Part shown: piece after piece, positions 1 to 51,480 of the stretch
Numbering within the stretch: position 1 is the first letter of the stretch
Layout: the number at the start of each line of letters is the position of its first letter
DNA from: a virus
IMG/VR virus record: IMGVR_UViG_3300033232_000010
Coordinates: 1-51,480 of that record
Strand: one strand, 5' to 3'
DNA: 51,480 bases
Program-made: the position numbers and the translations under genes
The notes under the pieces: generated by a model
What the model was told of the DNA's origin: nothing
What the model saw: only the letters and a program-made list of their open reading frames with translations
The model's database searches: none

Positions 1-127
1 GATCATGAACGACACCAAAACAGCGTTCAAAATGATCGGGCATTTGGGTATGGCGATTAAATGGGTGGCCGGTATTGCGGTGGCGATTGGCTCGGTGTGG
101 CTGATCTTCAGGGATTTGCACAAATGA
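1..127. repeat. Terminal direct repeat, copy A (identical to 51354-51480). Either a circular-assembly overlap or true terminal redundancy.
   Basis: Read directly: 'gatcatgaacgacaccaaaacagcg...cagggatttgcacaaatga' occurs at both ends of the window, 127/127 identical. It carries the 3' end of CDS 51058..51480. Confidence 0.97.
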
Positions 128-9319: not shown

Positions 9320-12300
9320 ATGGCAACAGCAGGACTCTCCTTCGCTAACCCCCTTCTGGGGAAGGTAAACGTGGGGGAGGAGCCGAACCCATATGCGCCG
9401 TTCAACCCCGCGTCGAGCATCGGCCCTGGGGGGCTAGCACCTTCCGCCGCAGACATGGCTGTCATGGGGGCGTCCCTGTCTGCCCAAAGCCAGTTCACCA
9501 TGCCGGAGATGCGCAAGCCTGTGGGTATCGCATACAACGAAGACACCCAAGAGCTCTTTGTACAGGGTAATGTCTTCCGTGCGGACGACGCTGCATCTGC
9601 GCTTCAGTCCGAAGGCTTACTCAGTGGCCCCGGCACGGGGGTACCCACTGGAGGTAACTGGGTGCCGCTCTCAGAAGACGCGTATCGCCAGTACCTCCAG
9701 ACCATTCGCAACCCCAGCCTCGGGCGTTTGGCATCCAAGTCCTTTGGCCGCGGCGTCGACGTCATGCAGTCGCTTGGGGGGCGCGCGCTACAACTCGCTG
9801 GCGCTGAGGAACTGGGTGGGCGCATCGTTGAGCAACAGGAGACTGAGCTCGCCCGCACCGCGCCGTTTGAGCGGCAGTTCACCGACATCGAAAGTGGCCG
9901 TGATGCTGTCGAATGGTTCGTCGCCAACTTCGCGCAGCAAGGGCCCAACCTGATCGAGTCAGTCGTCACAGCAGGTTTGGGCTTCCTCGCGGGCACTGCC
10001 GCAGGCGGCCCGTTGGCAGGCGCAGGCGGGGCGATGGTGGGCCTCATGGGCAAGACCGCCTTCAAGGAGGCTATCATCGCCGCGGCCCACAAAAAGGCGG
10101 CAGGCGAAGTTCTTAACGCGGCTGAAAACAAGTTACTGAGGGAAGCCGCCGGTATCGCTGGTGCTGTTTCTGCGTCCTACACCCAGAACCTTGCCACGGG
10201 TGCAGCTGACATCTACGGCGAACTGCGTGAGCAAGGGGCCGACGCCGACGATATAGACGCCCGCCTGAAGGCGTTGGCTGGCTCCGTACCCTATGCTGTG
10301 CTGGAAACGCTGCCCGAGTTTTTACTGGCCTCGCGGCTGTTCAGTGGCGCGTTGGCCCCGTCTGCTTTGGCCGCTGGCGCGTCGCGCACCGCGCGTGGTG
10401 CTGAAATGCTCAAACGAGGCGCCATTGGCTTCGGTGTAGGCGGTACGGCAGAGGGGCTTACCGAGACGGGGCAAGAGGCCCTGTTGCTGGGTATCTCCGG
10501 CCAAGACCTGTCCTCGCCCGAAAGCGTCAACCGGCTGATCAACTCGTTTGCGGCTGGCTTTGGCGTCGGTGGTCCTCTTGGCGCTGCTGCCAACTTACGC
10601 AGCAAGCAACCGGAGAACCTGCTCGACCCGGCCAAGTCGCCCGAGCCGACCCCCGGGCGTGATCTGATTGTCCCCCCGGGCACCCAGCCGTCTGGCCCCG
10701 ATACGGACATGGGGATGCCGCTACGCGATGGTGCTGTACCTGCCCAAATGGAAGGGCCGATGGCACCTCCCGCGCTCCCGGCTCCCGCTGCGCCTATCGC
10801 CCCCGTCGGTGGCCCAGTCATCATGGCTGGCATGGGACCGGATGCCGCGTCTGTCACCCGGCAAGATGTTCTGCTGCGGCAGCAGGGCAACGTGCCCCCC
10901 GGCGCACCCGGTACCCAAGGGGTGCTGGACGTTTTCGGTGGCACCATCCCGGCGCAAGAATTGGCGGCGCGAATGCAACCGCAGGCCCCGTTGCCTGCAC
11001 TGCCAGAGCCGTCTCCAGCAGTAGCGCCCGATCCTCGGCAAGGGGCGCTCCAGTTCGCTGGGCCAGCTACCGCAGCAGGCCCTGTCAACACCCAGATGGC
11101 GAACCAGCTTCAGGCCATCCAAGACCAGATTCGCCGCCAGCGAGAGTTCGAAACAGCGCAGGCCCAGCAGGCAGCGCTCATCCAGCAACAGACTGATGCG
11201 CTTGCGCAGCAGAGTACAAATGCGCGCGACCTGTTCGCACTGCAGCAACAGCAAAACATGCAGCCTGCGCAGATGGCAACCGGGCTTCCCATGCGCCCAG
11301 CTGGCCCGACGCAGCCGGTGCAGCTGCCGCTGTTCCCGCGCCGCCAGCTTCCTGTTCCCAGCCGTGCCGAGGGCCTGCGCCGTGGGGTGGGTACGGGTTT
11401 ACCCTTAGATGTTGGAGAAACCCCGCAGATTGCCGCCCAGCGGCAGGTTCAAGTCCCGCTGTTTACCCAGCAGGGTGAGCCGTCTGTCGCTGCGTTGCGC
11501 GCTGCGGGGGTCAAAACCAAACTGCCACCAGCGGCACCCAAGCCGCGCGCTACCAAGACAGTTGGCGCCCGTGGTCTGCGGAAAGGGGCCAAAGTCGCCG
11601 CTATCGAGATCGTTCCAAAGGAGGCCGCGCTGAAAAAAAGTGAGCTCGCCCAAGCTGGACGCATGTGGCCGCAGTACGCCGATCCAAAAACCCAGCCCAA
11701 GTGGGCTGATCTGTCCGACGCGCAGAAGGACGCATGGCGCAAAATCGCCATCGGAGACCGTCGACCCAATATCGCGGCCACCGAGGAGATCGCCCCGCCC
11801 TTAAAAGGTAAAGCTCTCAAAGTCGGCGAAAAAGGGCTGACCCGGAAGCCTACGCTCCGAATCACGCAATACAACGACGGTACTTTTGGTATTGATTGGC
11901 TGGATCGTGACGGACGACCTGCTGTTGAACGTACGTACAAGACTGAAGCCGAAGCACGCGCTGCCGCGCTGAAACAGTTTGGATCGGGTGAGCCTATTCA
12001 AAATGAGGTCTACGTTCGTCCGCGGCCCAAGAAGGAGATCGCCCCGCCTCCAAAAGCTGAGGCAGCAACAGCCGCCGAGGTACTGGCCGAAGAAATCAGC
12101 GTAGCCGAGGCGACCACGGACATCCGCACGTTCCGCGACGCCATCCAGACGGTAATCAACTACGCGTTCTTTTTGGGCGAAGACACCAACGTCAAGAAGT
12201 TGGTGGATCAGGCACGCGCGTTCCTTGACCGCACCCAGTTCACCGATGCGCAGATGGCCGCGATGGACGAGGCATTTCTCGATGCTGTGCGGTACGAAAC

Positions 12301-15300
12301 GCAGCTGGAAGCCCAGTACAAGGGTGGCTCGCGCAAAGGCCAGCCGAAGCCGTGGTTCTCCTACGCTGTGGCCCGTGGCCTGCTGCCCAGCGTCAAGGCC
12401 CGCATCGTCAACATGCCCGCGCAGTACAAGACGAAAGCCGAGCCCGCCAGCGGTGTGATTGCCAAAGCCAAGCCGGTTGAGTCCAGCGTGGAAAAGATGA
12501 CCCAGAAGCCCGAAGCGCTGCTGGGTGAGTTGATTGGCGACCTCGTGGCCCGCATTCGTGAGTACGCCAAGCTGACCCAGCCCGTGAAATTCCGGGGCAG
12601 AACTTACGACAACGTAGTGGAGCTTGCCAAGCAGCTTTACGCTCGTGCTGACAAAGCTGGCCGCGAGTACATCGTGCGTGGCAACAAGCTCAAGGACTAC
12701 TTCAACGCTGACGGCTCGCCCAAGATGATCAAGTCCGGTGGCCGCTACATCATCACCACACAGACCATGACCACTGCCGAACAGCGCAAGCTGGAGCAGG
12801 AGCAGAAATCAGAGGCCAAGGCGGTCGCTGCTGAGCAAGCCGAATTGCGCGCTGCCGAGTTCGAGCGCGCCCGTATTGAGAAGGAGGGATTCCGTGAAGA
12901 AGACGCTTGGGATAGTACTGATGGTATGTTCTATCAAGCTGATGGAACCGAGAATCCCGCCACGCTGCCGGTTGGCCGCATCCGCCTACTGGTCAAGGGG
13001 TTCCTGAGCAAGTTGCGCATAAAGCCCAACACGTTTGTCTATAAAAACGTCGCAGACTTGAAGACGCGCAACCCTGATTTGTACCGCCGCGCTGCCGCCG
13101 CCCGCAAGGAAGGTGACTTCGACGCGACCAACGCCGTGGGCTACTCGTTTGGCCCCAATGTCATCGTATTCACTGACTTTGTTCGCACCGCGCAGCAACT
13201 GAAGTTTGTGCTGGCGCACGAAACGCTGGGGCACTTCGGCTTCAAGGGCGTGATCCCCAAGGCCCAACTCGACAAGGTGCTCAACCGCATCTATGACGTT
13301 GACCCCGACGTACAGGCCGCAGTTGATGCGATGGTAGCCAACCGTGGCATACCCAAGCTGGAAGCCATTGAGGAATATCTGGCTGACAACGCTGCCGAGT
13401 TGGACACGTCCATCGTGGCGCGCATCTGGAACGTCCTGAAGAATTTCCTTAACAAGCTGGGCTTTGAGTTCCAAGACGACGAAGCCCGCTACTTCATCAA
13501 CCTCGCCCGCAAGTATGTGCGCCAAGGCGATGCTGGCAACTTTGTCAACGCCCGTTCCATTATGGGCAACCTTGAAACCATTGCGCGCGATCAGGCCGAC
13601 GGGCGGTACGCCCGCATTTACGCCGGGGACATGGGGTCACGCGTATTCGCCGCAGGCGCGCTCAACCGCATGCACTCGTTTGGAGGCACTGGTGGCCTAC
13701 TCGGTTCAATGGAAGCCTTTGCCAAGGGCGTATTCGGCGCCCGCCGCGATGTACCCGGTACTGTGGGCCGCATCCTTGAGACAGTGCAGACGCTGGATAA
13801 CAAAGCCCGCCGCAGCTACGGCTTGAGCCAGATTTACCGCATCCTTGAGAAGCAACAGCAGTACGCACGCTCCCTGTTGTCCAACTACCAGCGCCTGACT
13901 GCGTTTACACATTCGCCCACCATTTTTGGGTTCGGTAAGGGCGTGACCGAGGAGCAAAAGCAAACCGCAGGCGAACTGCTTGCACGGGCTGCCTTGCTGC
14001 GGGCCGAGCAAGCCACTGATGACCATATTAAGTCTTTCGACCCGCTGGTTATTGTCGACGAGATGGGCAACGTCACCATTGACCAGACGGTTCGCCGCGA
14101 TATAGAGCGCGCCGGTTTCGTCACCGCCGAGGAGTTCCGCAAGGGCTTCGACATCAAGTACACCGACGGCAGCACCGTGCGGTTCCAGTTCGACGTGGAT
14201 GAGAAAAGCGCCGAATGGCGTGTCTACAACGAGATACGCAACGCCGTCAACGAAGCCGCCATCGACCTGCTGCTGTCAAACTACGAAGCCTCGCAGGCTG
14301 AGGCCAAGCGCGTGGGGGCAGACCTCAACAACAAGCGGCGTGGCACCAACGTGTTCACAGGGGAAGACCTCGCCGCCATCCGGCGCGCGGCCGCGATGTA
14401 TCAATCCAAGCGGTACGCAGGCAGTGACGTGGCGAACGCCGGGGTGGAGGTCAAGCGAAGCGCCGACAAAAACTCCGAGGAGTTCCTTGTTGCATTCGGC
14501 CGCGCCTTGTTCAACGATGACGTCTATGCTGTCTGGATGAAAGACCCCAATGCCAAGCCCGAGATTGCCAAAGACTTGGAGGAGTTTCTGAAGTCCGAAT
14601 ACGACGACCTCCGGGCCGCGCTGCCCAGCCTAAAAGCAAAAATCAAAAACGACAAAGAGTCGTTCCAAGTGCAGAAAGCCATCCGCGATCTGTTCATGTT
14701 CGACCTCCAGTCCAAAAACGCTGACTACTATGCCAAGCACACCATCCTTGGTTCCTACGTTCGGTTCGCCCGCCGCGGTACCGAGCAGGTGCGGCTTGTG
14801 GCCGTCGATGACCGCGGGAATCCAGTGGCACTGGACGAGAACATCCGCGCTGCGCTGCCGTACTTTCAATTCAACACCCGCCGTGCGGCGATGGAAGCGG
14901 CAGCAGAACTGGACAAGGAATTCGGTAGCGACAATGAATTCGTTCTGCTCGATGATCAGGGCAACGAAACCACTGTGAGGCTAAAAGTCGAAGTGTCCCG
15001 TACCCGGCAGTCTCCTGACTTGACGGAAGCCGTGAACTTCAACGAGTTTATCTACGTGCTCAACCGGCTCAACATCAACATTGCACCGGAAGCACGGGAA
15101 CGTATTGTCACGACGCTGACAAATCAAAACGCACGTGCGCGGAGCAACCTTCAGCGTTCTGGCACCGAGGGCTGGGACAAGGACGTGGTGCGCTCCGTGT
15201 CAGAGCATCTGGAGACCACTGCGCACGTATCGGCGAAGAAACTCTACCGCCACCGCCTCGACGACATCCTGCTCAACAATGCAAACTGGCTGGGCGACGA

Positions 15301-17167
15301 CCAGATGCTGGGGGACTTGAAGTCCGCGGTGGACAACGCGCAAACCGATGGGGAACGCGCACGCGCACAGCGGGCTTATGATGAGTACGCATACATGTAT
15401 CGCTACATGAAGGGTGTAGCAGGCGGCAACACCGTTACCATCGGCGGCAAGGAAATGCCCACGCTGGGGCGCGGTGAAGATTTCCGGGAGGAAGCCAAAA
15501 AGGTGCTTCGCTGGTACAGCGAGGCGACCAACATTACCGACTCGACCGAAGACCTTTTGTCAGGCGAAGTCGGTTCAATGCTCAAGCTGTCGGCCGTACT
15601 GATGCAACTGGGCGGTTCGGTCGCCACGGCCGTGGTCAACCTTGCCTCGCTAGTCACGCACTCAATCCCATACTTGTCGTACTACAACTCCGCCCGGGGC
15701 TACGGCGGCGGGTACGGCGAAGTTAAGGCCACGACTGCACTGTGGCGTGCCGCGAAAGACCTCAAGAATGCCAACCTTGCTGATGCCGCCTTTCTTGAGG
15801 GGATGCTGCGTGACGGTACCTATGACCGCTTCGGCCTGACAGAAGACGAAGCCCAGTTCTTGCTCGACCAGACCGAGCAAGGTACATTGCAAGCTGCGCA
15901 GTTCAACGCGCTTGTGGGCACTGCACGAGGCAAAATATTCAGCAACAAAGCACAATTTGCGGTGCGGGCGTGGATGTCGGCCTTCTCCTACACTGAGCAG
16001 TTCAACCGGCGCACTACGGCGCTAGCCGCATACCGGATGGAGAAAGAACGCCTTCGCGCACAGGGTATCACCGACGAGCAGCAGATCAACAGCGAAGCCG
16101 CAGAAGTGGCGCGGGTAGCCGTGAACTCATCGCAGGGTGAGTACGGCATGTTCAACCGCCCCGGAATGGCACGTGGCAAAGTGCTGCAGTATGTTTTTGT
16201 GTACAAGCAGTTCGTCATCGTGACAGTACAGTTGCTGCGTAACCTGCCACCTAAAGGGCAAATGCTGATGTTAGGGATGCTGTTGCTGGCGTCGGGCCTA
16301 CGGGGTCTGCCGTTTGCTGAGGACATCTTTGACATTGTGGACACCATCGCCCAGACGCTGGGGCTGAAAATGGGCAGCATTGAGAAAGAGATCGCTGAGT
16401 TCATAGATTCTGTGGCCCCCGGCATGACACCATATGCGATGCGCGGGGTGCTTGACAGAATGACTGGGGGCACAATGTCCACCCGCTTAGGTATGGGTGA
16501 TCTAGTGCCACTTACCGGCGCGGCCAAGGCTGGTGCTGACCCAGCGCGCGAGGCAGCTAACTTTGCGGGCCCAGTGTTCGCGGGTATTTCCGGGCTGGCC
16601 GGTATGGCTGGTGGTTTCGCCAAGTACGGGGCTGAAGTGGTGGGTCTGCGCGACGACGTGACTTCGATCAGTGGCATCATGCGTAACTCGCCTATCGCGG
16701 CTTTCCGTGCGATGGCCGACGGGCTGGCCTTCCTCGACAGCGGGATGATCACCAACAACCGGGGGCAAGTTGTGGCGCGTGAGGCACCGTACCACGTGAT
16801 CCTCGCGCGAATGCTGGGCTTCTACCCAGCCATCGCCACCGAGCAGAACGACATTGTGCGGATGTCCAAGGACGTGACGAGCTACACCAAGGCGATCAAG
16901 GCAGACTACGTAGCGGCCTACGTCAAGGCCAAGCTGGCGGGGGACACTGAGCGGATGCAGGACGTGCTGTCTGATGTGCAGCAATGGAACGAAGACGCCA
17001 GAGGCACTGGGCTGGAGATTCCTTCGTTCGCGCGCTCTGCCAACCGCGCCGCAATGGAGGCATCCCGCCCCACAGTAGCCCGGTACCTCAAATCCGCGCC
17101 GCGGCAGATGCGGCCTGAAACGATTGAGATGCTACGGCTCCACGGGCTCGAAGACGAGGTTCGTTAA
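9320..17167 (+). CDS. Giant (2615-aa) virion-associated, polyvalent-type protein with an HExxH zincin motif.
   Basis: A single uninterrupted ORF with SD 'gaggtaa'. 'FVLAHETLGHFGFKG' lies at 13217-13234. A long Pro/Ala/Gln low-complexity tract spans about 10600-11600. The C-terminal part is hydrophobic. It is the last gene of the virion module. Confidence 0.8.
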   Translation: MATAGLSFANPLLGKVNVGEEPNPYAPFNPASSIGPGGLAPSAADMAVMGASLSAQSQFTMPEMRKPVGIAYNEDTQELFVQGNVFRADDAASALQSEGLLSGPGTGVPTGGNWVPLSEDAYRQYLQTIRNPSLGRLASKSFGRGVDVMQSLGGRALQLAGAEELGGRIVEQQETELARTAPFERQFTDIESGRDAVEWFVANFAQQGPNLIESVVTAGLGFLAGTAAGGPLAGAGGAMVGLMGKTAFKEAIIAAAHKKAAGEVLNAAENKLLREAAGIAGAVSASYTQNLATGAADIYGELREQGADADDIDARLKALAGSVPYAVLETLPEFLLASRLFSGALAPSALAAGASRTARGAEMLKRGAIGFGVGGTAEGLTETGQEALLLGISGQDLSSPESVNRLINSFAAGFGVGGPLGAAANLRSKQPENLLDPAKSPEPTPGRDLIVPPGTQPSGPDTDMGMPLRDGAVPAQMEGPMAPPALPAPAAPIAPVGGPVIMAGMGPDAASVTRQDVLLRQQGNVPPGAPGTQGVLDVFGGTIPAQELAARMQPQAPLPALPEPSPAVAPDPRQGALQFAGPATAAGPVNTQMANQLQAIQDQIRRQREFETAQAQQAALIQQQTDALAQQSTNARDLFALQQQQNMQPAQMATGLPMRPAGPTQPVQLPLFPRRQLPVPSRAEGLRRGVGTGLPLDVGETPQIAAQRQVQVPLFTQQGEPSVAALRAAGVKTKLPPAAPKPRATKTVGARGLRKGAKVAAIEIVPKEAALKKSELAQAGRMWPQYADPKTQPKWADLSDAQKDAWRKIAIGDRRPNIAATEEIAPPLKGKALKVGEKGLTRKPTLRITQYNDGTFGIDWLDRDGRPAVERTYKTEAEARAAALKQFGSGEPIQNEVYVRPRPKKEIAPPPKAEAATAAEVLAEEISVAEATTDIRTFRDAIQTVINYAFFLGEDTNVKKLVDQARAFLDRTQFTDAQMAAMDEAFLDAVRYETQLEAQYKGGSRKGQPKPWFSYAVARGLLPSVKARIVNMPAQYKTKAEPASGVIAKAKPVESSVEKMTQKPEALLGELIGDLVARIREYAKLTQPVKFRGRTYDNVVELAKQLYARADKAGREYIVRGNKLKDYFNADGSPKMIKSGGRYIITTQTMTTAEQRKLEQEQKSEAKAVAAEQAELRAAEFERARIEKEGFREEDAWDSTDGMFYQADGTENPATLPVGRIRLLVKGFLSKLRIKPNTFVYKNVADLKTRNPDLYRRAAAARKEGDFDATNAVGYSFGPNVIVFTDFVRTAQQLKFVLAHETLGHFGFKGVIPKAQLDKVLNRIYDVDPDVQAAVDAMVANRGIPKLEAIEEYLADNAAELDTSIVARIWNVLKNFLNKLGFEFQDDEARYFINLARKYVRQGDAGNFVNARSIMGNLETIARDQADGRYARIYAGDMGSRVFAAGALNRMHSFGGTGGLLGSMEAFAKGVFGARRDVPGTVGRILETVQTLDNKARRSYGLSQIYRILEKQQQYARSLLSNYQRLTAFTHSPTIFGFGKGVTEEQKQTAGELLARAALLRAEQATDDHIKSFDPLVIVDEMGNVTIDQTVRRDIERAGFVTAEEFRKGFDIKYTDGSTVRFQFDVDEKSAEWRVYNEIRNAVNEAAIDLLLSNYEASQAEAKRVGADLNNKRRGTNVFTGEDLAAIRRAAAMYQSKRYAGSDVANAGVEVKRSADKNSEEFLVAFGRALFNDDVYAVWMKDPNAKPEIAKDLEEFLKSEYDDLRAALPSLKAKIKNDKESFQVQKAIRDLFMFDLQSKNADYYAKHTILGSYVRFARRGTEQVRLVAVDDRGNPVALDENIRAALPYFQFNTRRAAMEAAAELDKEFGSDNEFVLLDDQGNETTVRLKVEVSRTRQSPDLTEAVNFNEFIYVLNRLNINIAPEARERIVTTLTNQNARARSNLQRSGTEGWDKDVVRSVSEHLETTAHVSAKKLYRHRLDDILLNNANWLGDDQMLGDLKSAVDNAQTDGERARAQRAYDEYAYMYRYMKGVAGGNTVTIGGKEMPTLGRGEDFREEAKKVLRWYSEATNITDSTEDLLSGEVGSMLKLSAVLMQLGGSVATAVVNLASLVTHSIPYLSYYNSARGYGGGYGEVKATTALWRAAKDLKNANLADAAFLEGMLRDGTYDRFGLTEDEAQFLLDQTEQGTLQAAQFNALVGTARGKIFSNKAQFAVRAWMSAFSYTEQFNRRTTALAAYRMEKERLRAQGITDEQQINSEAAEVARVAVNSSQGEYGMFNRPGMARGKVLQYVFVYKQFVIVTVQLLRNLPPKGQMLMLGMLLLASGLRGLPFAEDIFDIVDTIAQTLGLKMGSIEKEIAEFIDSVAPGMTPYAMRGVLDRMTGGTMSTRLGMGDLVPLTGAAKAGADPAREAANFAGPVFAGISGLAGMAGGFAKYGAEVVGLRDDVTSISGIMRNSPIAAFRAMADGLAFLDSGMITNNRGQVVAREAPYHVILARMLGFYPAIATEQNDIVRMSKDVTSYTKAIKADYVAAYVKAKLAGDTERMQDVLSDVQQWNEDARGTGLEIPSFARSANRAAMEASRPTVARYLKSAPRQMRPETIEMLRLHGLEDEVR

Positions 17168-20057: not shown

Positions 20058-20336
20058 TTACTGGTTCAGTATCTCAAGGAGACGCTCCTTCCGCTGCTTC
20101 TGCTCCGCGGCGATCACTTCCGGCATAGGCCATTCGTGATCCGTCATCACAGCAAGCAGCCGCTTTAGCATCGCCCGTACTGCCGCGTCGTTGGCTTTGC
20201 GAAGGACTTTGCCCTTCACCCACCCATAATACGTCATACGGGACACTCCTAGCAACTCGGCCATGTCCGTAGTTGTTAGAAGCATATGCTTGCGAAGCGC
20301 CTCAACCTTTTTGAAATCGAGTGGTTTAGGCATCAT
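20058..20336 (-). CDS. Small HTH DNA-binding protein.
   Basis: 'LLTTTDMAELLGVSRMTYYGWVKGK' is a helix-turn-helix. The start is chosen at MMPKPL (20336), because the ORF-track start at 20390 lies inside the upstream gene. Confidence 0.65.
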   Translation of the reverse strand: MMPKPLDFKKVEALRKHMLLTTTDMAELLGVSRMTYYGWVKGKVLRKANDAAVRAMLKRLLAVMTDHEWPMPEVIAAEQKQRKERLLEILNQ

Positions 20337-21330
20337 CAGCGTCAATCTCCCCAACGAGGGCCGCAATCTCATCGGCCAATGAAGACGCATCGGACGCGCC
20401 TGCCGCGGCTACAACCTTGGGGGCCTTGGGGGCCTTGGCCGGTGCGGGTGCGGGGGCCGCAGCAGCCGGTTTGGATGCGCCAAAACCACGCTTGGGTGCA
20501 GCAGCCGGTGCGGGTGCAGGGGCGGGTGCAGGTTCCTCAACGGGTGCTGCTGCTCTGACAGCGGGTTTCGGCGCAACTGGTGCAGCAGCCGGTGCCTTGG
20601 CAATCTGGGGCACAGCCACTGGTGTTCTCAGGGTTTCCCCGGTAATTGCTTTGACTTCCTCAGTACCGAACAGCGCGTCAACAGCTTGCTGGGTGTCTGC
20701 ATCAAGGAAGCCACCAAAGGTGAACTTCAGCTTCGGGAACGACGCATCAGTGTCGAAAGCCACGCGGGTCTTGACAATCTCCGGGGGGATACCACGCACG
20801 GATAGTTCCTTCTGGTATTGGTTCAAGCCCTTCAGCGCAGCCGGGGTGACCGACAGCAAGTAAACCGGGCCGCTCGGGTCGTCAGCGGCAACGACTGCCA
20901 AACGTTTGTTGTCCGAGCACGCCTTGATCTGCTGGCCACTTGGGGTGACCTTGGAGCCCCACGCATTTTGGGGGCAGGAGGCGCATAGGTCGCTCTGCGG
21001 GTCTTCGGATTCTGGGTCAGGGCCGACGCCATCCAGTGAGAAGCAGTCGGGCCCGGTAGGCTCAGCGTCCTTGTCCCATACCTTGGCGTACCAAGTCTTG
21101 GACAGCCGGGGGTTGGCACCGACAACTACTACGTCGAGGAAGGTAGAGTCCAGCACAGTCTCGGTGTCGCCTTCGACAATGCGGAAGCGGCTGGCCTTAA
21201 TGCTGATGCGGGGGAACAACTGCCCCGATGACAGGCCACCAGTCAGGGACTGGGCCAGTGCAGACGGAACACCAACGCGGGCGGCGAGGTGGGCGGGTAC
21301 TTGGATGTTCACGGGAACGATATTGCTCAT
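20326..21330 (-). CDS. Putative ssDNA-binding protein (T7 gp2.5-like architecture).
   Basis: 334 aa with a globular N-terminal part, a long Ala/Pro linker and an acidic C-terminal tip, 'LADEIAALVGEIDADDA'. It sits in the replication module. Inferred from architecture only. Confidence 0.45.
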   Translation of the reverse strand: MSNIVPVNIQVPAHLAARVGVPSALAQSLTGGLSSGQLFPRISIKASRFRIVEGDTETVLDSTFLDVVVVGANPRLSKTWYAKVWDKDAEPTGPDCFSLDGVGPDPESEDPQSDLCASCPQNAWGSKVTPSGQQIKACSDNKRLAVVAADDPSGPVYLLSVTPAALKGLNQYQKELSVRGIPPEIVKTRVAFDTDASFPKLKFTFGGFLDADTQQAVDALFGTEEVKAITGETLRTPVAVPQIAKAPAAAPVAPKPAVRAAAPVEEPAPAPAPAPAAAPKRGFGASKPAAAAPAPAPAKAPKAPKVVAAAGASDASSLADEIAALVGEIDADDA

Positions 21331-44411: not shown

Positions 44412-44693
44412 ATGGGCAAACTATATATTCGGGTGAAGAAAGACGGGTTTTTGTACGGGTACAACGCAATTTTGGCGGAAAACCCGGACTGCGAAGTCAT
44501 CACTGAAAGGGAAGCGTTCCCGGAGCGTTTCGTCCCCACACACGCCGCTGACCGTGTGGGGGGGCCAGAGAAAGGCAAGCGCACTGCCAAGCACAAAGCA
44601 GCGCTCGATCTGTCGACCGTTGACGTCCCCGAGGCGCCGCTTTATACTCCCCCAGAATTGGCTGAAGACGCCGCACGAAACCTACCCATATGA
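44412..44693 (+). CDS. Hypothetical protein.
   Basis: ATG at 44412 after 'aaaggagcacaca'. An alternative upstream start at 44346 overlaps the previous stop. Confidence 0.5.
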   Translation: MGKLYIRVKKDGFLYGYNAILAENPDCEVITEREAFPERFVPTHAADRVGGPEKGKRTAKHKAALDLSTVDVPEAPLYTPPELAEDAARNLPI

Positions 44694-45349
44694 CACCCGC
44701 TGACGTTATCGCTGAAACTCGGAGCCTGATTCAGGACACCAAGGCGCCGTATCGTTACAGCGATGCAGTGCTGCTCGGCTTCGTCAACCAGACGCTCAAG
44801 CGCATGGTGATGCTTCGTCCAGATTTGTTCACGACGATTACCAGTCTTCCAACGGAACCTAATGACGTGCAGCAGGCGTTACCTACCAGTGCAGTGAGGT
44901 TGGTTGAGTTGTTCCGGGTTGTTGGCGGGCCATCACTTGAGGAAGCGGACTGGGGTGTCTTCACCCGCACGTATCCGGAGTGGGCGACCGACCCCGCGGG
45001 GGTGCCAACGAAATACATTCGGCACCCGCGCAACCCCCGGGTGTATTTCCTATACCCCCGCCCAGCGGTAAACATCGCGCTTCTTGGTGAGTACGTTGTC
45101 ACACCCCCTAATTACGCACTGGATGACGACATTAGTGGATTGCCCGACGCGTATTTTGGCGCGATAGTAGATGGCGTAGTGTTCTTGGCGGAGTCTGTGG
45201 ACAACGAGCATGTTAACTCCAACCGTGCCAAGCTGTTCTTCGACTCGTTTGTGCAAGCGCTTGGGGTATCTTTGCAGTCCCGCGCACTGACGGATAGCGA
45301 CGGCAGAGGCGGCGCAGCGCGGGCTGACGCAAGGGAAGGCGCGCAATGA
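44690..45349 (+). CDS. Virion (adaptor-like) protein, paralogue 1.
   Basis: 219 aa, clearly homologous to the next ORF (shared 'LLGFVNQ.L...LRPDLFT', 'Y.RH.RNP..YFLYP.P'). Confidence 0.65.
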   Translation: MTPADVIAETRSLIQDTKAPYRYSDAVLLGFVNQTLKRMVMLRPDLFTTITSLPTEPNDVQQALPTSAVRLVELFRVVGGPSLEEADWGVFTRTYPEWATDPAGVPTKYIRHPRNPRVYFLYPRPAVNIALLGEYVVTPPNYALDDDISGLPDAYFGAIVDGVVFLAESVDNEHVNSNRAKLFFDSFVQALGVSLQSRALTDSDGRGGAARADAREGAQ

Positions 45350-45999
45350 CACCGAATGACGTTATCACCGACGCCCGACGGCTGGCCCAAGACAATGGGT
45401 TGCTACGCGCGCCAGATACATACACTGCAGCAGCGCTGCTAGGGTTTGTGAATCAAGTGCTGAGGCAAACGGCAGTCCTGCGTCCTGATCTGTTCACGGT
45501 GATGGCTGACATTCCGACGACTCCCAATGTCGTGGAGCAGCGGCTCCCGGCTGATTCCATTCGGCTGGTCAACATACTGGCTGCCAAGGATGGGGGCGCG
45601 ATTACTGAAGTGTCCCGCGAAATGATGGATCAGTCGTACCCCCAGTGGCGGCTTGATTCTGCCGGTACGCCGGTCAATTACATGCGGCACGTTCGTAATC
45701 CGAACCAGTACTTCCTATACCCCAAGCCCATCGCGGGGGTAGTTCTTACTGGTGAATACGCCCAGTCGCCACCGACCTATACGATAGACCAGCAGATTGC
45801 GCTGTTGCCTGATGCGTTCCAGCCAGTCATTACGGCAGGCGTTGTGATGTTGATTTCTGGAGTAGAAAATAGCAACCAGAGTGTTCAGCGGTTCTCGCAG
45901 TTTCAAGAGATGTATGCGCAAACACTCGGGGCCAATTTGCAGACTAGGGCTACCACGGATACAAAATCTAGCGGGCTCGATCCGAAGCAGGTGATCTAA
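45346..45999 (+). CDS. Virion (adaptor-like) protein, paralogue 2.
   Basis: 217 aa, homologous to 44690..45349. ATGA overlap. Confidence 0.65.
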   Translation: MTPNDVITDARRLAQDNGLLRAPDTYTAAALLGFVNQVLRQTAVLRPDLFTVMADIPTTPNVVEQRLPADSIRLVNILAAKDGGAITEVSREMMDQSYPQWRLDSAGTPVNYMRHVRNPNQYFLYPKPIAGVVLTGEYAQSPPTYTIDQQIALLPDAFQPVITAGVVMLISGVENSNQSVQRFSQFQEMYAQTLGANLQTRATTDTKSSGLDPKQVI

Positions 46000-46779: not shown

Positions 46780-47916
46780 GTGTTCATCCGTCTAAAGAAC
46801 AACGCCTCGGGGTTTCTCGCCAATGCCGTATCGTCGACTGACACGCTGCTCGTCTTGCAGGCTGGCGGGGGGGAGGAATTCCCCGCAATTCGCGGTACGC
46901 AGTTTTTCTATGTGACGATTGCCAGCCCAGTTGGCGCAATTGAAGTCGTTAAGGTGACTGGCCGGTCTGGGGACTCCTTGACTGTGCATCGGGCGCAGGA
47001 AGAAACCAGCGCGATGTCCTTCCCTGCGCTGTCACGGGTTGAGATGCGCATCAGTGCTCAGTCTATCTACGATGTTATTGACTCTGCGATCAGCGGTACT
47101 AGCCTTGCAATTTCTAACATTGGCAGTGTAATCACCGTCGCAGCTAATATTGGTAGCGTCAATACAGTTTCCGACAACTCTGGCGATGTGAGTAATGTGT
47201 CCGCTAATATGGCGAAGATATGGGATGTCTCGCACGACATCGACAACGTTAATACGGCTGCCACCGGTATCATTGATATAAATACGGTTGCCACCAACGT
47301 TGCTGCTGTCAACACGGTAGCGGGCAACATCCAGCCCATATTAGCTAATATCGAAGTAATTACTGCGGTGGGCGCAAACATTGCTAACGTGACCACCGTT
47401 GCGACCATATCTGCTAACGTGAACACGGTTGCAGGCGCCAATGCTGCTGTGACTGCCGTTGCCGGGGTTGCCTCAGAAGTGGTTACGGTGGCTAACGCCG
47501 CCGCTAACATGGCTACCGTTGCCAACGCTGTTACAGAGGTGATTACCGTGGCGGGGGTTGCCCCGGCGGTAGCTACGGTTGCAGGCGTTTCCGCCGACGT
47601 GACGACCGTGGCGGGGGTTGCCCCGGCGGTAACTACGGTTGCAGGCGTCTCCGCCAACGTGACGACCGTGGCGGATATTTCCGCTGCAGTAAGCACGGCG
47701 GCGGCGAACATCGTCGCCATTCAGGACGCGCCCGCGCGCGCCAGTCAGGCCGCTAGCAGCGCGGTGGCTGCCAACCAGTCCGCTGTAAACGCAGCGGCAT
47801 CCGCGGCCTCGGCGTGGAACACCGTGGCCATAGTTGAAGAAGCCAGTGCCAGCATTTCAGCCTTCAACGCCGCCCGGGTAACGGCGGATTCCGACTTCGG
47901 TCTCAACTTTTTTTAA
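46780..47916 (+). CDS. Tail fibre protein with a long heptad-like repeat shaft.
   Basis: GTG start 7 nt after 'aaggag'. The N-terminus 'FLANAVSSTDTLLVLQAGGGEEFP...VKVTGRSGDSLTVHRAQEETSA' resembles phage fibre anchor domains. It is followed by about 30 repeats of the 'xxNVxTVA' type. Confidence 0.7.
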   Translation: MFIRLKNNASGFLANAVSSTDTLLVLQAGGGEEFPAIRGTQFFYVTIASPVGAIEVVKVTGRSGDSLTVHRAQEETSAMSFPALSRVEMRISAQSIYDVIDSAISGTSLAISNIGSVITVAANIGSVNTVSDNSGDVSNVSANMAKIWDVSHDIDNVNTAATGIIDINTVATNVAAVNTVAGNIQPILANIEVITAVGANIANVTTVATISANVNTVAGANAAVTAVAGVASEVVTVANAAANMATVANAVTEVITVAGVAPAVATVAGVSADVTTVAGVAPAVTTVAGVSANVTTVADISAAVSTAAANIVAIQDAPARASQAASSAVAANQSAVNAAASAASAWNTVAIVEEASASISAFNAARVTADSDFGLNFF

Positions 47917-47931
47917 CAAAGGAACCTTACC

Positions 47932-49200
47932 ATGTCATCAACTGCACAAAGCACACTGGTAGCGCGTATTGCCACCGTATCGGCCACCGAGACCGACTTG
48001 CAAAAACTCGCCTATGCCGCCAAAGGTCTGGCGGCGCTGGAGCCCACGGGCTCAACTGACACGACCCAGTATTACGGTGTGAGTTGGGATGAGTTTGCTG
48101 ACACCTACGTGGCCACTGGCTCTGCCACGGCGCACATTGCACTGCCCGTCCAGTCTCGGATGCGCCGTTGTTTGCTCAATGACGCTGGCGAAGTGGTCAG
48201 CTATCTGCACCCGCAAAACAGCCTGTATCTGGACAGCGGCAACATTGCCGACCTCACGGGTGTGGCCGGACAAGTCATGGTGGAGGTGCCGAAATTCTGG
48301 CAGCGTTACAGCTATGTCGGCACGCGCCACACTTGGGAGATTGCCGAACAACCCTTGGCAGGCTTCAGCGTACACCCTGCTTTTGTCAAGGATGGGGTCG
48401 AGGTGCCTTACCGCTACACCAGCGCCTATGAAGCCAGCCTGAGCACGACCAAGATCGCCTCGGTTTCTGGCGTGCTGCCGCAAACTGCCCGCACGCGTGC
48501 CCAGTTCCGCGCGGCTGCTGTGGCGCGTGGCGCGGGTTGGCGGCAGTATGACTACTTTATGCACAGCGCATTGCAACTGCTGGCGCTGGTGGAGTTTGGC
48601 AGCTTCAACATCAAGGGCGCGATTGGTGCTGGCCGGGTGAATCTGTCAGGTGGCAGTTGGGTCGAGGGCAGCTACTTGGCGCTGACTGGCTTGTCCAACA
48701 GCTTTGGCAACGGCAGTGGCAGCGTGGCACTGGGCGGCACCGCAGGCTACCTGACCGACGTGATGAGCTACCGTGGGGTTGAAAACTTCTGGGGCCACGT
48801 CTGGAAGTTTGTTGACGGCATGACGGTTGACGCTACAGCCAACGACACCACCACGGCCATTCCGATCTGGGTGACCAACGACAGCACTTATTTTGCCGAC
48901 ACCGGCAGCGCGGGTATGACCAAGCTCTGGGACATGACCAACTTTGGCGCGACCAATGAGGGCTACACCGCTACGCTGCATGAAAACATTGTCGGGTTCA
49001 TGCCAGATGCACTAGGAGGCACCAGCACCACCAAGGCGCATCAGTACACTTGGCAGTACTCGGCCAATAACCAAGGGTGGCGTACCCCCTATGTTGGCAC
49101 GCATGCGAATTATGGCGCGGGTGCGGGGCCGCTCGCGCTCTCTTTGTATGATGCGTCGGGCTTTTCGAGTGTGGCTGTCGGCGCGCGCGCGGGGTTCTGA
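47932..49200 (+). CDS. DGR target protein (Mtd-like receptor-binding protein; the C-terminal variable region is presumably C-type-lectin-fold).
   Basis: 422 aa, immediately after the tail fibre gene. The last 39 codons are the VR. Confidence 0.85.
   Translation: MSSTAQSTLVARIATVSATETDLQKLAYAAKGLAALEPTGSTDTTQYYGVSWDEFADTYVATGSATAHIALPVQSRMRRCLLNDAGEVVSYLHPQNSLYLDSGNIADLTGVAGQVMVEVPKFWQRYSYVGTRHTWEIAEQPLAGFSVHPAFVKDGVEVPYRYTSAYEASLSTTKIASVSGVLPQTARTRAQFRAAAVARGAGWRQYDYFMHSALQLLALVEFGSFNIKGAIGAGRVNLSGGSWVEGSYLALTGLSNSFGNGSGSVALGGTAGYLTDVMSYRGVENFWGHVWKFVDGMTVDATANDTTTAIPIWVTNDSTYFADTGSAGMTKLWDMTNFGATNEGYTATLHENIVGFMPDALGGTSTTKAHQYTWQYSANNQGWRTPYVGTHANYGAGAGPLALSLYDASGFSSVAVGARAGF
49079..49195 (+). 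repeat. DGR variable repeat (VR).
   Basis: Aligns with 49268-49384 at an offset of 189. All 21 core mismatches fall at TR adenines. It ends in a G/C-only tract, 'cggcgcgcgcgcgggg'. Confidence 0.9.
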
Positions 49201-49267
49201 AATTTTTGGATGCTGAAAATGGGAACCTTGTCCGCTAACCCGAGGAGCCAGCTTTTGGGCCTTTCGC

Positions 49268-49384
49268 AACGTACCCCCTATGTTGGCACGAATGCGAATA
49301 ATGGCACGAATGCAGGGCCACTCACGCTCAATTTGAATAATGCGTCAGGCATTTCGAATGTGAATATCGGCACGCGCACGGAGT
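49268..49384 (+). repeat. DGR template repeat (TR).
   Basis: Intergenic copy of the VR. In the VR reading register it has 9 AAT codons. It lies 115 nt upstream of the RT start. Confidence 0.9.
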
Positions 49385-49499
49385 CTGTCCTTTACTTGAA
49401 TCCAGGACAGGGTTTCCACGCCCCTTGGCGAAATATAGAACGGCCCTTTGGTGCTGGTAGGCGTCACCGCCGAACGCTCCGGGCCGGGACAGGAACCGT

Positions 49500-50549
49500 A
49501 TGAAACGCTACGGTAACCTTTACGCCAAGGTATGCACGCTGGAGAACATCCGGCTGGCGCACAAAAACGCCCGCAAGGGCAAGCTGAAATACGCCGAGGT
49601 CAAGTGGGTCGACGCCCACTTGGACGAGTGCGTTGCGCAGATTCAAAAAATGCTGGTTGAAAAAACTTACACCACTTCACCTTATCGGGTGTTTGACAAG
49701 GTTGACAACGGCAAGCGGCGCGTGATCTACGCGTTGCCCTATTTCCCCGACCGCATCATTCATCACTGCATCATGCAGGTGGTCGAAGACATCTGGATGC
49801 GTACCTTCATCAGGGACACCTACGCCAGCATGAAAAACCGGGGCGTGCATGATGGCGTGCGCCGGGTGCAGTCGGCCATGCGTAACGACCCGGCGGGTAC
49901 GCGCTACTGCCTTAAGATGGACGTGACCCAGTTCTACCCGTCTATCAGCCACCCATTGCTGAAGCAAACCATTCGCCTGAAAATCAAAGACCCCGACCTG
50001 CTGGCGCTGATGGATGGCATCATCGATTCGGTACCGTCCGGCGTGCCCATTGGCAATTACCTGAGCCAGTTTCTTGGTAACCTGTTCCTGTCAGGCATTG
50101 ACCACTGGGGCAAAGAGGTGCTGGGCCTGAAGTACTACTTTCGGTATTGCGATGACATCGTGGTGCTGCTCGACGACCCTACCCGGTTGCACCAGTTGCG
50201 CAGCCTGTTTGACACCGAGCTTGCCGCTATCGACCTGTCGCTGAAGGGCAACTGGCAAGTGTTCCCGGTCGCCGCGCGCGGTGTCGATTTTTTAGGCTAC
50301 CGGTTTTTCGGCACGCACACGCTTGTGCGGCGCCGCATCGCAGACAAATTCCGCCGCCAAATGCGCCAGCACCGCAAGGCGTGGCACCGTAAAGCCCCGG
50401 CAGCGGTGCTGTCATCCATCATGAGCTACCACGGATGGATGCGCTTCGCGCAGGCTAAAAGCCTGTTTAGCCACCATGTTTCCAAACCCTTGCGCCAGCG
50501 AGTGATAACCCGCACTGGGCGCTATACCCTTGAAGGAGCTTTCCAATGA
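49500..50549 (+). CDS. DGR-type reverse transcriptase.
   Basis: 349 aa. 'FPDRIIHH', 'LKMDVTQFYPSI', 'GVPIGNYLSQFLGNLFL' (the SQ motif typical of DGR RTs) and 'YFRYCDDIVVL' (YxDD). Confidence 0.9.
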   Translation: MKRYGNLYAKVCTLENIRLAHKNARKGKLKYAEVKWVDAHLDECVAQIQKMLVEKTYTTSPYRVFDKVDNGKRRVIYALPYFPDRIIHHCIMQVVEDIWMRTFIRDTYASMKNRGVHDGVRRVQSAMRNDPAGTRYCLKMDVTQFYPSISHPLLKQTIRLKIKDPDLLALMDGIIDSVPSGVPIGNYLSQFLGNLFLSGIDHWGKEVLGLKYYFRYCDDIVVLLDDPTRLHQLRSLFDTELAAIDLSLKGNWQVFPVAARGVDFLGYRFFGTHTLVRRRIADKFRRQMRQHRKAWHRKAPAAVLSSIMSYHGWMRFAQAKSLFSHHVSKPLRQRVITRTGRYTLEGAFQ

Positions 50550-50881
50550 AAATGCACTCTACCCACCTACCCCCGGCCCTGCACACCAGCAACGGTGTCT
50601 GGTTTTTCAATGTGAACCCTGTACTGATCCCCGGCGCACCGGCCACCGAGACCACCGAGGCTACCCAAGACAGCTATGAGTGCGACAGCATGGCTTTGAC
50701 CGGCGAACCCGCGCGTGCTGCGCTCATCTCCGCGGGTATCGCTGCGCGCTACAGCAAAGACGACGAGATTGCGTTGCTCAACAACAAGCTGCTGGGTGAT
50801 GATGCAGCTTACGCGGCTTACGCGGCTTACCGTGATGACGTCAAGGCGCAAGTCGCTGCGGCTGGCTATCCGGCGGTGTAA
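50546..50881 (+). CDS. Hypothetical acidic protein translationally coupled to the RT.
   Basis: 111 aa. ATGA overlap with the RT stop. Confidence 0.55.
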   Translation: MKMHSTHLPPALHTSNGVWFFNVNPVLIPGAPATETTEATQDSYECDSMALTGEPARAALISAGIAARYSKDDEIALLNNKLLGDDAAYAAYAAYRDDVKAQVAAAGYPAV

Positions 50882-50898
50882 CGGTTACTGGGGTTGCC

Positions 50899-51048
50899 AT
50901 GCTTGACACGCTTATTTGGCTCGACGTCACCCTGTGGCGCTGGGCCACGCTTGGCCGCTATCCGGTAGGCGAGACGGCATCAGCGGCGGCTTGGCGCATG
51001 CAGCTGGCAGGGCGCAGACGTGGCCGGGTGGCAGGTGCATATTTATGA
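50899..51048 (+). CDS. Possible small protein (49 aa; below the ORF-track cutoff).
   Basis: My own translation is MLDTLIWLDVTLWRWATLGRYPVGETASAAAWRMQLAGRRRGRVAGAYL. The SD is weak. Confidence 0.3.
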   Translation: MLDTLIWLDVTLWRWATLGRYPVGETASAAAWRMQLAGRRRGRVAGAYL

Positions 51049-51057
51049 AAGATAAAA

Positions 51058-51480
51058 ATGACGAATGACCACACCGAACGCCGCGCATGGCCGCGCCCTG
51101 TAGCACCGCATGACGACGCCCACCCATGTACCAACGGCTGCGACGATCTGAACGATGTGTCTGCCGCCATTGAGGCCACCCGCGTGGAGTTGCAGAGTTT
51201 TGAGCACCGGCTCGACGAGGGGCATGTCCAACTAAATCGCTTTGAGCACCGGCTCGACGAGGGGGACGCACGCATGGGCCGCATCGAGACAATGATCAAC
51301 GCCAACAACCGTTCAATGACCCAAAACTCTGCGGACACGGCAGAGATATTGGGGATCATGAACGACACCAAAACAGCGTTCAAAATGATCGGGCATTTGG
51401 GTATGGCGATTAAATGGGTGGCCGGTATTGCGGTGGCGATTGGCTCGGTGTGGCTGATCTTCAGGGATTTGCACAAATGA
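51058..51480 (+). CDS. Lysis-cassette protein with a C-terminal TM anchor.
   Basis: 140 aa. Contains a tandem 14-aa repeat with 'FEHRLDEG' and the C-terminal TM segment 'IKWVAGIAVAIGSVWLIF'. Its stop overlaps the holin ATG once the genome is circularised. Confidence 0.6.
   Translation: MTNDHTERRAWPRPVAPHDDAHPCTNGCDDLNDVSAAIEATRVELQSFEHRLDEGHVQLNRFEHRLDEGDARMGRIETMINANNRSMTQNSADTAEILGIMNDTKTAFKMIGHLGMAIKWVAGIAVAIGSVWLIFRDLHK
51354..51480. repeat. Terminal direct repeat, copy B (identical to 1-127).
   Basis: Same 127-nt string as the window start. Confidence 0.97.

Follow-up and report, generated by a model that had tools for sequence, protein, structure and literature searches.

A probable diversity-generating retroelement without an accessory gene in the complete genome of an uncultivated phage

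The DNA analysed here is a stretch of 51,480 nucleotides (nt) from the IMG/VR virus record IMGVR_UViG_3300033232_000010 (positions 1 to 51,480, hereafter the window), and the subject is a putative diversity-generating retroelement (DGR) that follows the tail fibre gene. The cassette covers ~2.6 kb in the order target gene, template repeat (TR) and reverse transcriptase (RT) gene, and the variable repeat (VR) lies at the end of the target gene (Table 1). An exact direct repeat of 127 nt is shared by the two ends of the window (1-127 = 51354-51480). It is the signature of circular assembly at a k-mer size of 127, and the window is a complete circular phage genome of ~51,353 bp. To our knowledge, DGRs are the only natural system that diversifies a protein via an RNA intermediate. 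Our results indicate that the region is very probably a genuine DGR with a minimal layout of target, TR and RT and without an accessory gene, and that it diversifies a distal tail protein at its lectin-like C-terminal end.

Table 1. Features of the cassette and its immediate neighbours, in positions of the window (aa, amino acids; ORF, open reading frame; IMH, initiation of mutagenic homing; pI, isoelectric point).
Feature	Position	Strand	Description
Tail fibre gene	46780-47916	+	phrog_8469 'tail fiber protein' (3.3e-19) and other tail-fibre PHROGs; directly upstream of the target gene
Putative DGR target gene	47932-49200	+	422-aa distal tail protein; phrog_5302 'tail protein' (1.5e-86)
VR	49079-49195	+	Last 38-39 codons of the target gene; diversified stretch ~49084-49177 by comparison with relatives
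G/C-only VR 3' end	49180-49195	+	GGCGCGCGCGCGGGG then T; candidate IMH-like boundary
TR	49268-49384	+	Non-coding, adenine-rich: 31-33 A, 9 AAT codons in the VR frame
Structured spacer RNA (predicted)	49385-49499	+	Analogous to 'Sp' of BPP-1
Spacer hairpin	49385-49410
Alternative closing pairing of spacer	49385-49390 / 49487-49492
Spacer P1	49419-49430		CGCC-CCUU-GGCG hairpin
Spacer P2	49442-49446 / 49481-49485
Spacer P3	49450-49455 / 49475-49480
Spacer GGUA	49456-49459
Spacer P4	49460-49471		Hairpin, variable
Spacer GAA	49472-49474
RT gene (DGR type by similarity)	49500-50549	+	349 aa, pI 10; starts 115 nt past the TR
111-aa ORF	50546-50881	+	Coupled to the RT gene by an ATGA overlap; no Pfam, PHROG, NCBIfam or PDB match

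The two repeats were recovered by a repeat finder as 49081-49195 and 49270-49384, at a constant offset of 189 nt and with 82% identity, and the gap between VR and TR is 72 nt. The initial annotation had counted 21 mismatches in the 115 aligned nt, every one at a template adenine. Computational re-alignment and a direct base count returned the same figures: 21 of 21 mismatches fell on TR adenines (hypergeometric P = 8.4e-16 for all of them falling on 31 adenines), 10 of the 31 adenines were unchanged, and none of the 84 C, G or T positions differed. From TR to VR there were 14 A>G, 4 A>T and 3 A>C changes, an A>G share of 67%, and the average of the clade over 58 elements is 64% G, 19% T and 16% C. 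Two further A>G positions had been proposed at 49268-49269. They do exist and bring the count to 23 of 23 mismatches over 117 nt, but they are indistinguishable from chance, because the homology in a related IMG/VR contig (L001) already breaks at the second position. Past 49195, homology between TR and VR with a 1-nt shift was confined to a CTG match, which was not significant, and a scan of the whole genome found no second VR. The VR shares the reading frame of the 422-aa ORF, and the codon count in this frame reproduced the earlier statement that 8 of the 9 template AAT codons are altered, to H, Y, G, S, Y, D, S, and A. Three of the VR changes are synonymous A>G changes at third positions, so that selection at the protein level alone is insufficient to explain the pattern.

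The ORF that follows the TR had been read as an RT from its motifs IGNYLSQ and YCDD, and both its start and these motifs were confirmed. The protein matched Pfam RVT_1 (2.7e-13) and the phage RT family phrog_1423 (2e-114). When it was compared with all solved structures, the best match was the RT of the Bordetella phage (bRT, 8ub7 series; E 1.4e-37, residues 2-323), and group II intron and retron RTs matched at only 4e-15 to 3e-13, which places bRT ahead by ~20 orders of magnitude. The sequence IGNYLSQ aligns to IGSLTSQ of bRT, and YCDD aligns to YMDD; the motif I/V/L-G-x-x-x-S-Q is typical of DGR RTs. The scores with the NCBIfam models for group II, retron, and defence-associated (DRT) enzymes were far below the cut-offs of these models, for example 99.6 bits vs 300. 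Among phage records, the nearest RTs were those of crAss-like and other phages (40-47% identity), with Bordetella phages also among the matches. Judged by these comparisons, the enzyme is a DGR-type RT.

Three close relatives of the element allowed transfer and diversification to be followed within the lineage. They are L001, in which the target is 86% identical, a metagenome contig (L012) with a 91% identical RT, and a prophage in a metagenome-assembled genome (MAG) (L009/L010; NCBI GCA_974168075.1; SRR25014987) with an 84% identical target. In their own VR/TR pairs, 21 of 22, 18 of 18, and 20 of 20 mismatches, respectively, were at template adenines. L012 and L001 have identical TRs and different VRs, and the TRs of all four elements are nearly identical. 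When the four elements were compared, only 1 of 77 conserved non-A template columns showed any VR change, and among the 25 columns with A in every TR, 20 varied between the VRs. The non-A differences between TRs were mirrored in the VR of the same element; since each VR thus follows its own TR, transfer from TR to VR must have been repeated after the lineages split. Beyond these relatives, an adenine-specific VR-TR-RT cassette was found in 61 of 80 metagenomic RT relatives (41-91% identity), and most of the others had too little upstream sequence to judge. A similar picture was obtained with 19 protein variants from different samples, 7 of them members of a sister cluster and 12 of a second cluster (109 members in all). 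At least three residues occurred in 11-12 of the last 39 columns vs 3-5 of the 386 columns elsewhere, and these hypervariable columns coincide with the template AAT codons. Operation of the DGR mechanism is strongly supported by sequence evidence in the lineage, and for this genome the evidence is indirect.

A plain tandem duplication followed by adenine-biased mutation, for example by strand-specific deamination, next to an RT of retron, group II intron or defence type, might produce a repeat pair of similar appearance, and two thirds of the changes being A>G would alone be suggestive of deamination. The remaining third, however, is A>T or A>C, and the adenines concerned are found in one copy only, the non-coding one. 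The same directional pattern recurs beside homologous RTs at 61 loci, the non-A differences of the TRs that were copied into their own VRs require repeated transfer, and the RT is closest to bRT and below the retron, group II and DRT cut-offs. The explanation by duplication and deamination is therefore almost certainly wrong and is effectively refuted.

The target protein was modelled with AlphaFold2 from 50 homologues, which gave a predicted local distance difference test value (pLDDT) of 88.5 and a predicted template modelling score (pTM) of 0.85. Against the PDB, the sole significant matches of the model were three chains of TaqVP from Thermus aquaticus (5vf4; E 1.5e-11 to 1e-9, probability 1.0), and Mtd (1yu0-4) was among the weaker matches. 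TaqVP is likewise a DGR target with its variable residues in a C-terminal lectin-like domain. Its alignment to the target extends over ~396 columns at 17% sequence identity and an overall template modelling score (TM) of 0.44-0.48, the domain arrangement differs, and TaqVP is a cellular protein rather than part of a phage tail. In BFVD, the tail fibres cr55_1, cr7_1 and cr6_1 of crAss-like phages were the best matches (TM 0.73-0.77), and the matches included entries annotated as TvpA-like and FGE-like. A C-type lectin or FGE-like fold had been expected for this protein, and the structural model confirmed a C-type-lectin-like variable-protein fold for its C-terminal domain. The description of the target as a tail-fibre-associated protein also agrees with its PHROG match and with the matches of its model to TaqVP and crAss-like tail fibres. 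Similarly, the comparison with Bordetella phage BPP-1 held, in which the order is tail fibre gene, mtd, TR, brt and lysis genes, and mtd directly follows the tail fibre gene as the target gene does here.

DGRs that act on phage tail proteins drive host-range switching, and the fold and position of the target suggest that it binds a receptor. It is also conceivable that the DGR works on a virion protein that binds some ligand other than a host receptor, or on a protein that functions in superinfection or in the environment. The target has no Pfam domain match, its function is deduced solely from fold and position, and it belongs to a large uncharacterised family (211 matches) whose members are spread over very diverse prophages and MAGs, all of which would fit such a role. 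We consider it very unlikely, however, for a protein whose gene lies in the structural module next to the tail fibre gene and directly downstream of it, with a match to a 'tail protein' PHROG, with structural likeness to annotated tail fibres of crAss-like phages and with the same synteny as Mtd of BPP-1.

Between the TR and the RT gene lies a spacer of 115 nt, which is almost identical in L001 and L012 and more conserved than the flanking coding DNA. In 32 distinct spacers of relatives, a common core was found that consists of P1, an A-rich stretch, P2 and P3, GGUA, P4, GAA and the return strands. P1 had 2 covarying pairs and no breaks in the 32 sequences. P3 with its own partner had 4.54 of 6 positions paired vs 3.55 +/- 0.12 when the partners were permuted (2000 permutations, highest value 3.96), a count that slightly favours the observed value since, in the few sequences with more than one candidate, the GAA anchor with most pairing was picked. 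Several pair types occurred at each position of P3, and a UxU mismatch was conserved in 18 of 28 sequences. The long-range closing helix of the spacer was supported by the relatives as well. The minimum free energy fold of the whole spacer was not significant alone (z -1.3), and RNAalifold on a MAFFT alignment recovered only P1; the other helices were obtained by anchored, permutation-controlled counting.

Rfam searches placed a match to RT-17 (RF03020) at 49414-49492 with 33.9 bits and E 6e-5, which does not reach the gathering score of 40.4, and the same match was found at the same place in another relative (L004). By its score the spacer is a relative of RT-17 and not a certified member, and the shared core and the covariation among relatives indicate a related RNA. 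Phage_DGR (RF03022) gave no match at E <= 1 in 48900-49700, and the spacer of BPP-1 itself scores 104.7 bits with this model. With both families, the spacer shares the position between TR and RT start, a GCC-NCUU-GGC hairpin followed by AAA, a UGGUAG...CGAA core and a flanking helix. As a side observation, CUGUCC at 49385-49390 can pair with either of two GGACAG copies, the local one at 49405-49410 or the one at 49487-49492 just before the RT start codon. These mutually exclusive pairings could constitute an RNA switch or serve translational coupling.

The 3' end of the VR differs from the rest of the repeat in its constancy. The A>G differences at VR positions 49158, 49183, 49189, and 49193 (TR 49347, 49372, 49378, and 49382) are identical in all four related elements, unlike those at the other TR adenine positions. 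At 49183, 49189, and 49193 the VR has G in all four elements, and through these three changes its end consists of a 15-mer of G and C only. At the protein level, all 19 cluster variants end in the same GARAGF. The 15-mer resembles the (G/C)14 element of the IMH of BPP-1, and by this analogy the G/C-only end may be an IMH-like boundary element. The last three A>G changes may be fixed boundary determinants, or they may have been mutagenised and then purified by selection.

Several results weigh against the reading of the locus as a minimal DGR. Avd is essential in the BPP-1 prototype, and Pfam scans of every plausible ORF in the complete genome detected no Avd (PF05635), HRDC or other accessory family. 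The PDB and NCBIfam searches of the ORF coupled to the RT gene and of three small basic ORFs gave no Avd match either; single-chain variable fragment (scFv) matches of the small basic ORFs in the PDB search were an artefact of poly-G linkers in the query. No convincing hairpin or cruciform was seen after the VR, where the DNA fold was no better than that of shuffled sequence (z +1.8), and the RT-17 score of the spacer is below its gathering value, as described above. In IMG/VR, the degenerate pattern of the full TR with A changed to N had no match, and the 90% protein cluster of the target has a single member, with no variants of the exact protein. Since no variants of the exact element were found in either place, activity was judged from the sister lineages. 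Finally, the L009/L010 prophage still has both repeats and the first hairpin of the spacer (L009 3298-3700) and lacks an equivalent of 49423-50342, so that most of the RT is deleted, and its VR-TR differences are nevertheless still restricted to adenines (20 of 20). The adenine-only pattern is therefore no proof of present activity, because it outlives the RT in L009.

On these grounds the element might be a relic, that is, a DGR which was once active and is now frozen through loss of Avd or a hidden inactivating change, with a VR that records the last homing event. The L009/L010 prophage is in exactly this state, and neither an accessory gene nor population variants of the exact protein are on record for the element studied here. 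On the other side, its RT ORF is full length with catalytic motifs, and no mismatch has accumulated at the 84 non-A positions, although the surrounding gene is ~16% divergent at the DNA level from its nearest relative. In addition, conservation extends to the TR, the spacer RNA and the RT, diversified VRs occur in dozens of relatives that share the layout without Avd, and sister-lineage variants from separate samples differ in the VR. A relic is thus unlikely, and the comparisons with the sister lineages suggest that the DGR may still be active in this phage.

The absence of an accessory gene deserves separate consideration. Because the whole circular genome is in hand, Avd is certainly not encoded by the phage. 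The 111-aa ORF downstream of the RT gene was judged unlikely to be a DGR accessory gene: it is acidic (pI 4.7 vs ~9.5 for Avd), and, kept downstream of the RT in relatives, it is also kept in L009 despite the loss of the RT. Its retention there without the RT suggests that it is probably a gene of the phage backbone. A 97-aa basic ORF over the TR and the spacer was rejected as a cryptic accessory protein, since no more than 11 of 50 relatives have this frame open. In most RT relatives the gap between VR and TR is 42-175 nt. A group of human-gut relatives (L036-L044, L048, L052-L055, and L084-L091; RT ~48% identical) has a constant gap of ~478 nt, with VRs that vary from contig to contig and a constant TR, and no convincing same-strand ORF for avd was found in this gap. 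Promoter and terminator scans yielded nothing informative.

Most DGRs carry an accessory gene (Avd, or else HRDC, MSL or CH1), though by no means all, and accessory-less elements are well represented among known DGRs. Wu et al. assigned 29% of 372 curated DGRs to Architecture A, which has no accessory gene, and they described an RT lineage without avd, inferred an Avd-independent mechanism and flagged as open how priming and adenine-specific infidelity come about without Avd (Wu et al., 2018; PMC5758913). With 29% of DGRs lacking accessory genes, a missing accessory gene is no bar to DGR membership. The initial annotation had called the element complete. It is correct in that the DGR is genuine, but the word needs qualifying, as there is no Avd gene, though this layout is a recognised one rather than a defect. 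A self-sufficient, Avd-independent DGR, in which the spacer RNA (with P1, the P2/P3 helix and its UxU mismatch, the core of GGUA, hairpin and GAA, and the two mutually exclusive pairings of its first bases) would do the scaffolding and priming for which BPP-1 uses Avd, is a possibility that we regard as rather doubtful. If it were true, this large metagenomic clade would represent the natural DGR in its minimal form, and tools of targeted diversification would gain a simpler chassis.

Taken together, these data are compatible with the following scheme of a minimal DGR. The TR and the structured spacer would be transcribed together, and the RT would copy the TR RNA into cDNA, faithfully at C, G and U and with misincorporation opposite adenines, mostly as A>G in this clade. 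The cDNA would then take the place of its homologous stretch, the final ~115 nt of the tail-protein gene, with the G/C-only end of the VR as the probable determinant of both boundary and direction of the transfer. Through the adenines in the AAT codons, about a dozen surface residues would be re-randomised with the lectin-like scaffold kept, and the outcome for the phage would be a library of receptor-binding specificities. In this scheme, the point of priming, the part played by the G/C boundary and the way in which the RT works without Avd are inferred.

The element shares many traits with the BPP-1 DGR (mtd-avd-TR-brt). The order of tail fibre gene, target with a C-terminal VR, TR, RT gene, small ORFs and lysis genes is the same, and the tail fibre gene takes the position of bbp9 upstream of mtd. 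The RTs are homologous over their full length, the repeats are of similar size (~115-134 nt) with AAY codons, and the VR 3' end is G/C-rich. The spacers both have a 5' hairpin, a small CC-GC-tetraloop hairpin, an A-rich stretch and a long helix around a G-U-A...GAA(A) core. Unlike BPP-1, there is no avd here, and the gap of 72 nt between VR and TR compares with the 387 nt of avd in BPP-1. The spacer is related to RT-17 below threshold and not to Phage_DGR, and the target is closer to TaqVP and the crAss-type tail fibres than to Mtd. BPP-1 is also temperate with an attachment site, in contrast to the genome described here, which lacks an integrase. On the assumption that the numbering starts from the annotated end of the TR, the priming adenine of BPP-1, Sp-A56, lies in the linker GUGGUCA*GC. 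The corresponding linker is much shorter here (only 8 nt), and the priming site can therefore not be transferred by homology.

Architecture A of Wu et al. (2018; PMC5758913) has the same order of target, TR and RT without an accessory gene and a C-terminal VR of the C-type-lectin type. The difference is that the present element is part of a complete phage genome, in which the phage-wide absence of avd is certain rather than presumed. The DGRs of crAss-like and gut phages are also similar, as their RTs and tail fibres were the best matches of the RT among phage records and of the target in BFVD, and several of these phages are regarded as non-temperate. In contrast to them, the phage backbone here has a portal closest to those of RHph_TM3-type and HMO-2011-type phages, the genome is of environmental origin with 57% GC, and in the gut subgroup VR and TR lie 478 nt apart.

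Categorically, the element is nothing new, and its value is that of a clean and fully delimited example of an accessory-less DGR. Its close relatives form a natural 'before and after' set, with an identical TR next to different VRs and with one deleted RT. The complete phage genome indicates that an Avd encoded by the phage is dispensable for an RT of this clade, and that the enzyme has a conserved structured RNA of a distinct kind as its partner. The element is thus a reasonable candidate for asking how the RT of this clade gains adenine-specific infidelity and priming without Avd, and the cassette may serve as a compact chassis for engineered diversification.

The phage is uncultivated, and its genome comes from an environmental metagenome (JGI). 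By Pfam and PHROG scans, the genome encodes an SU10-type portal, two adaptor paralogues, a terminase, a DNA polymerase A, a DUF927 primase-helicase, an SNF2 helicase, a PD-(D/E)XK nuclease, a holin and an endolysin. The nearest relatives of the portal are those of Rhizobium RHph_TM3-type phages (35%) and HMO-2011-type podoviruses (26%). Among 50,697 phage records, no blastn match was found for 46780-51480. For host assignment, a first genome scan was empty, and a profile scan returned only relatives of at most 49% identity across many phyla.

With regard to lifestyle, the phage had been described as not obviously temperate, without an integrase or repressor. The scans with PHROG and Pfam of all plausible genes in the complete genome detected no integrase or recombinase, and the combination of integrase or recombinase with a repressor module that marks a temperate phage was not found, so this part of the description is fair. 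It has to be tempered by one weak helix-turn-helix (HTH) ORF and by temperate or integrated relatives: the same target gene also occurs in the L009 prophage, which lies beside a tRNA, and in a related contig with an integrase. The genes adjoining the L009 prophage are those for a tRNA, PALP, TusA and ValRS. The HTH ORF (20058-20390, minus strand, 110 aa) matched HTH_17 at 2.6e-5 and HTH_3 at 2.6e-4, all below the Pfam cut-offs. It lies just upstream of the DUF927 primase-helicase gene and is the sole regulator-like protein of the genome. A DGR in a phage that is not obviously temperate is nothing new, and DGRs in lytic and crAss-like phages have already been described.

Several minor observations were made in the remainder of the genome. 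The tail fibre gene contains internal repeats at 47272-47698 with a periodicity of 30/60/90 nt and units of the V-T-T-V-A-G-V type, and its versions in L001 and L009 are longer (553-573 aa). The two SU10-type head-tail adaptor genes are tandem paralogues at 44690-45349 and 45346-45999 (Pfam PF24175; 7e-23 and 3e-21). A giant ORF of 2615 aa at 9320-17167, in the structural or injection block, matched only PHROGs of unknown function, at its C-terminus, and its counterpart in another relative (L011) bears LPD22/LPD3 'large polyvalent protein' domains. Finally, the ORF at 51058-51480 extends into the terminal repeat, next to the genes for the holin and the endolysin (61-1590). It contains an exact direct repeat of 24 nt (51199-51222 and 51241-51264) that encodes FEHRLDEG twice, and its product, which has a C-terminal hydrophobic segment, is possibly a protein of the lysis module.

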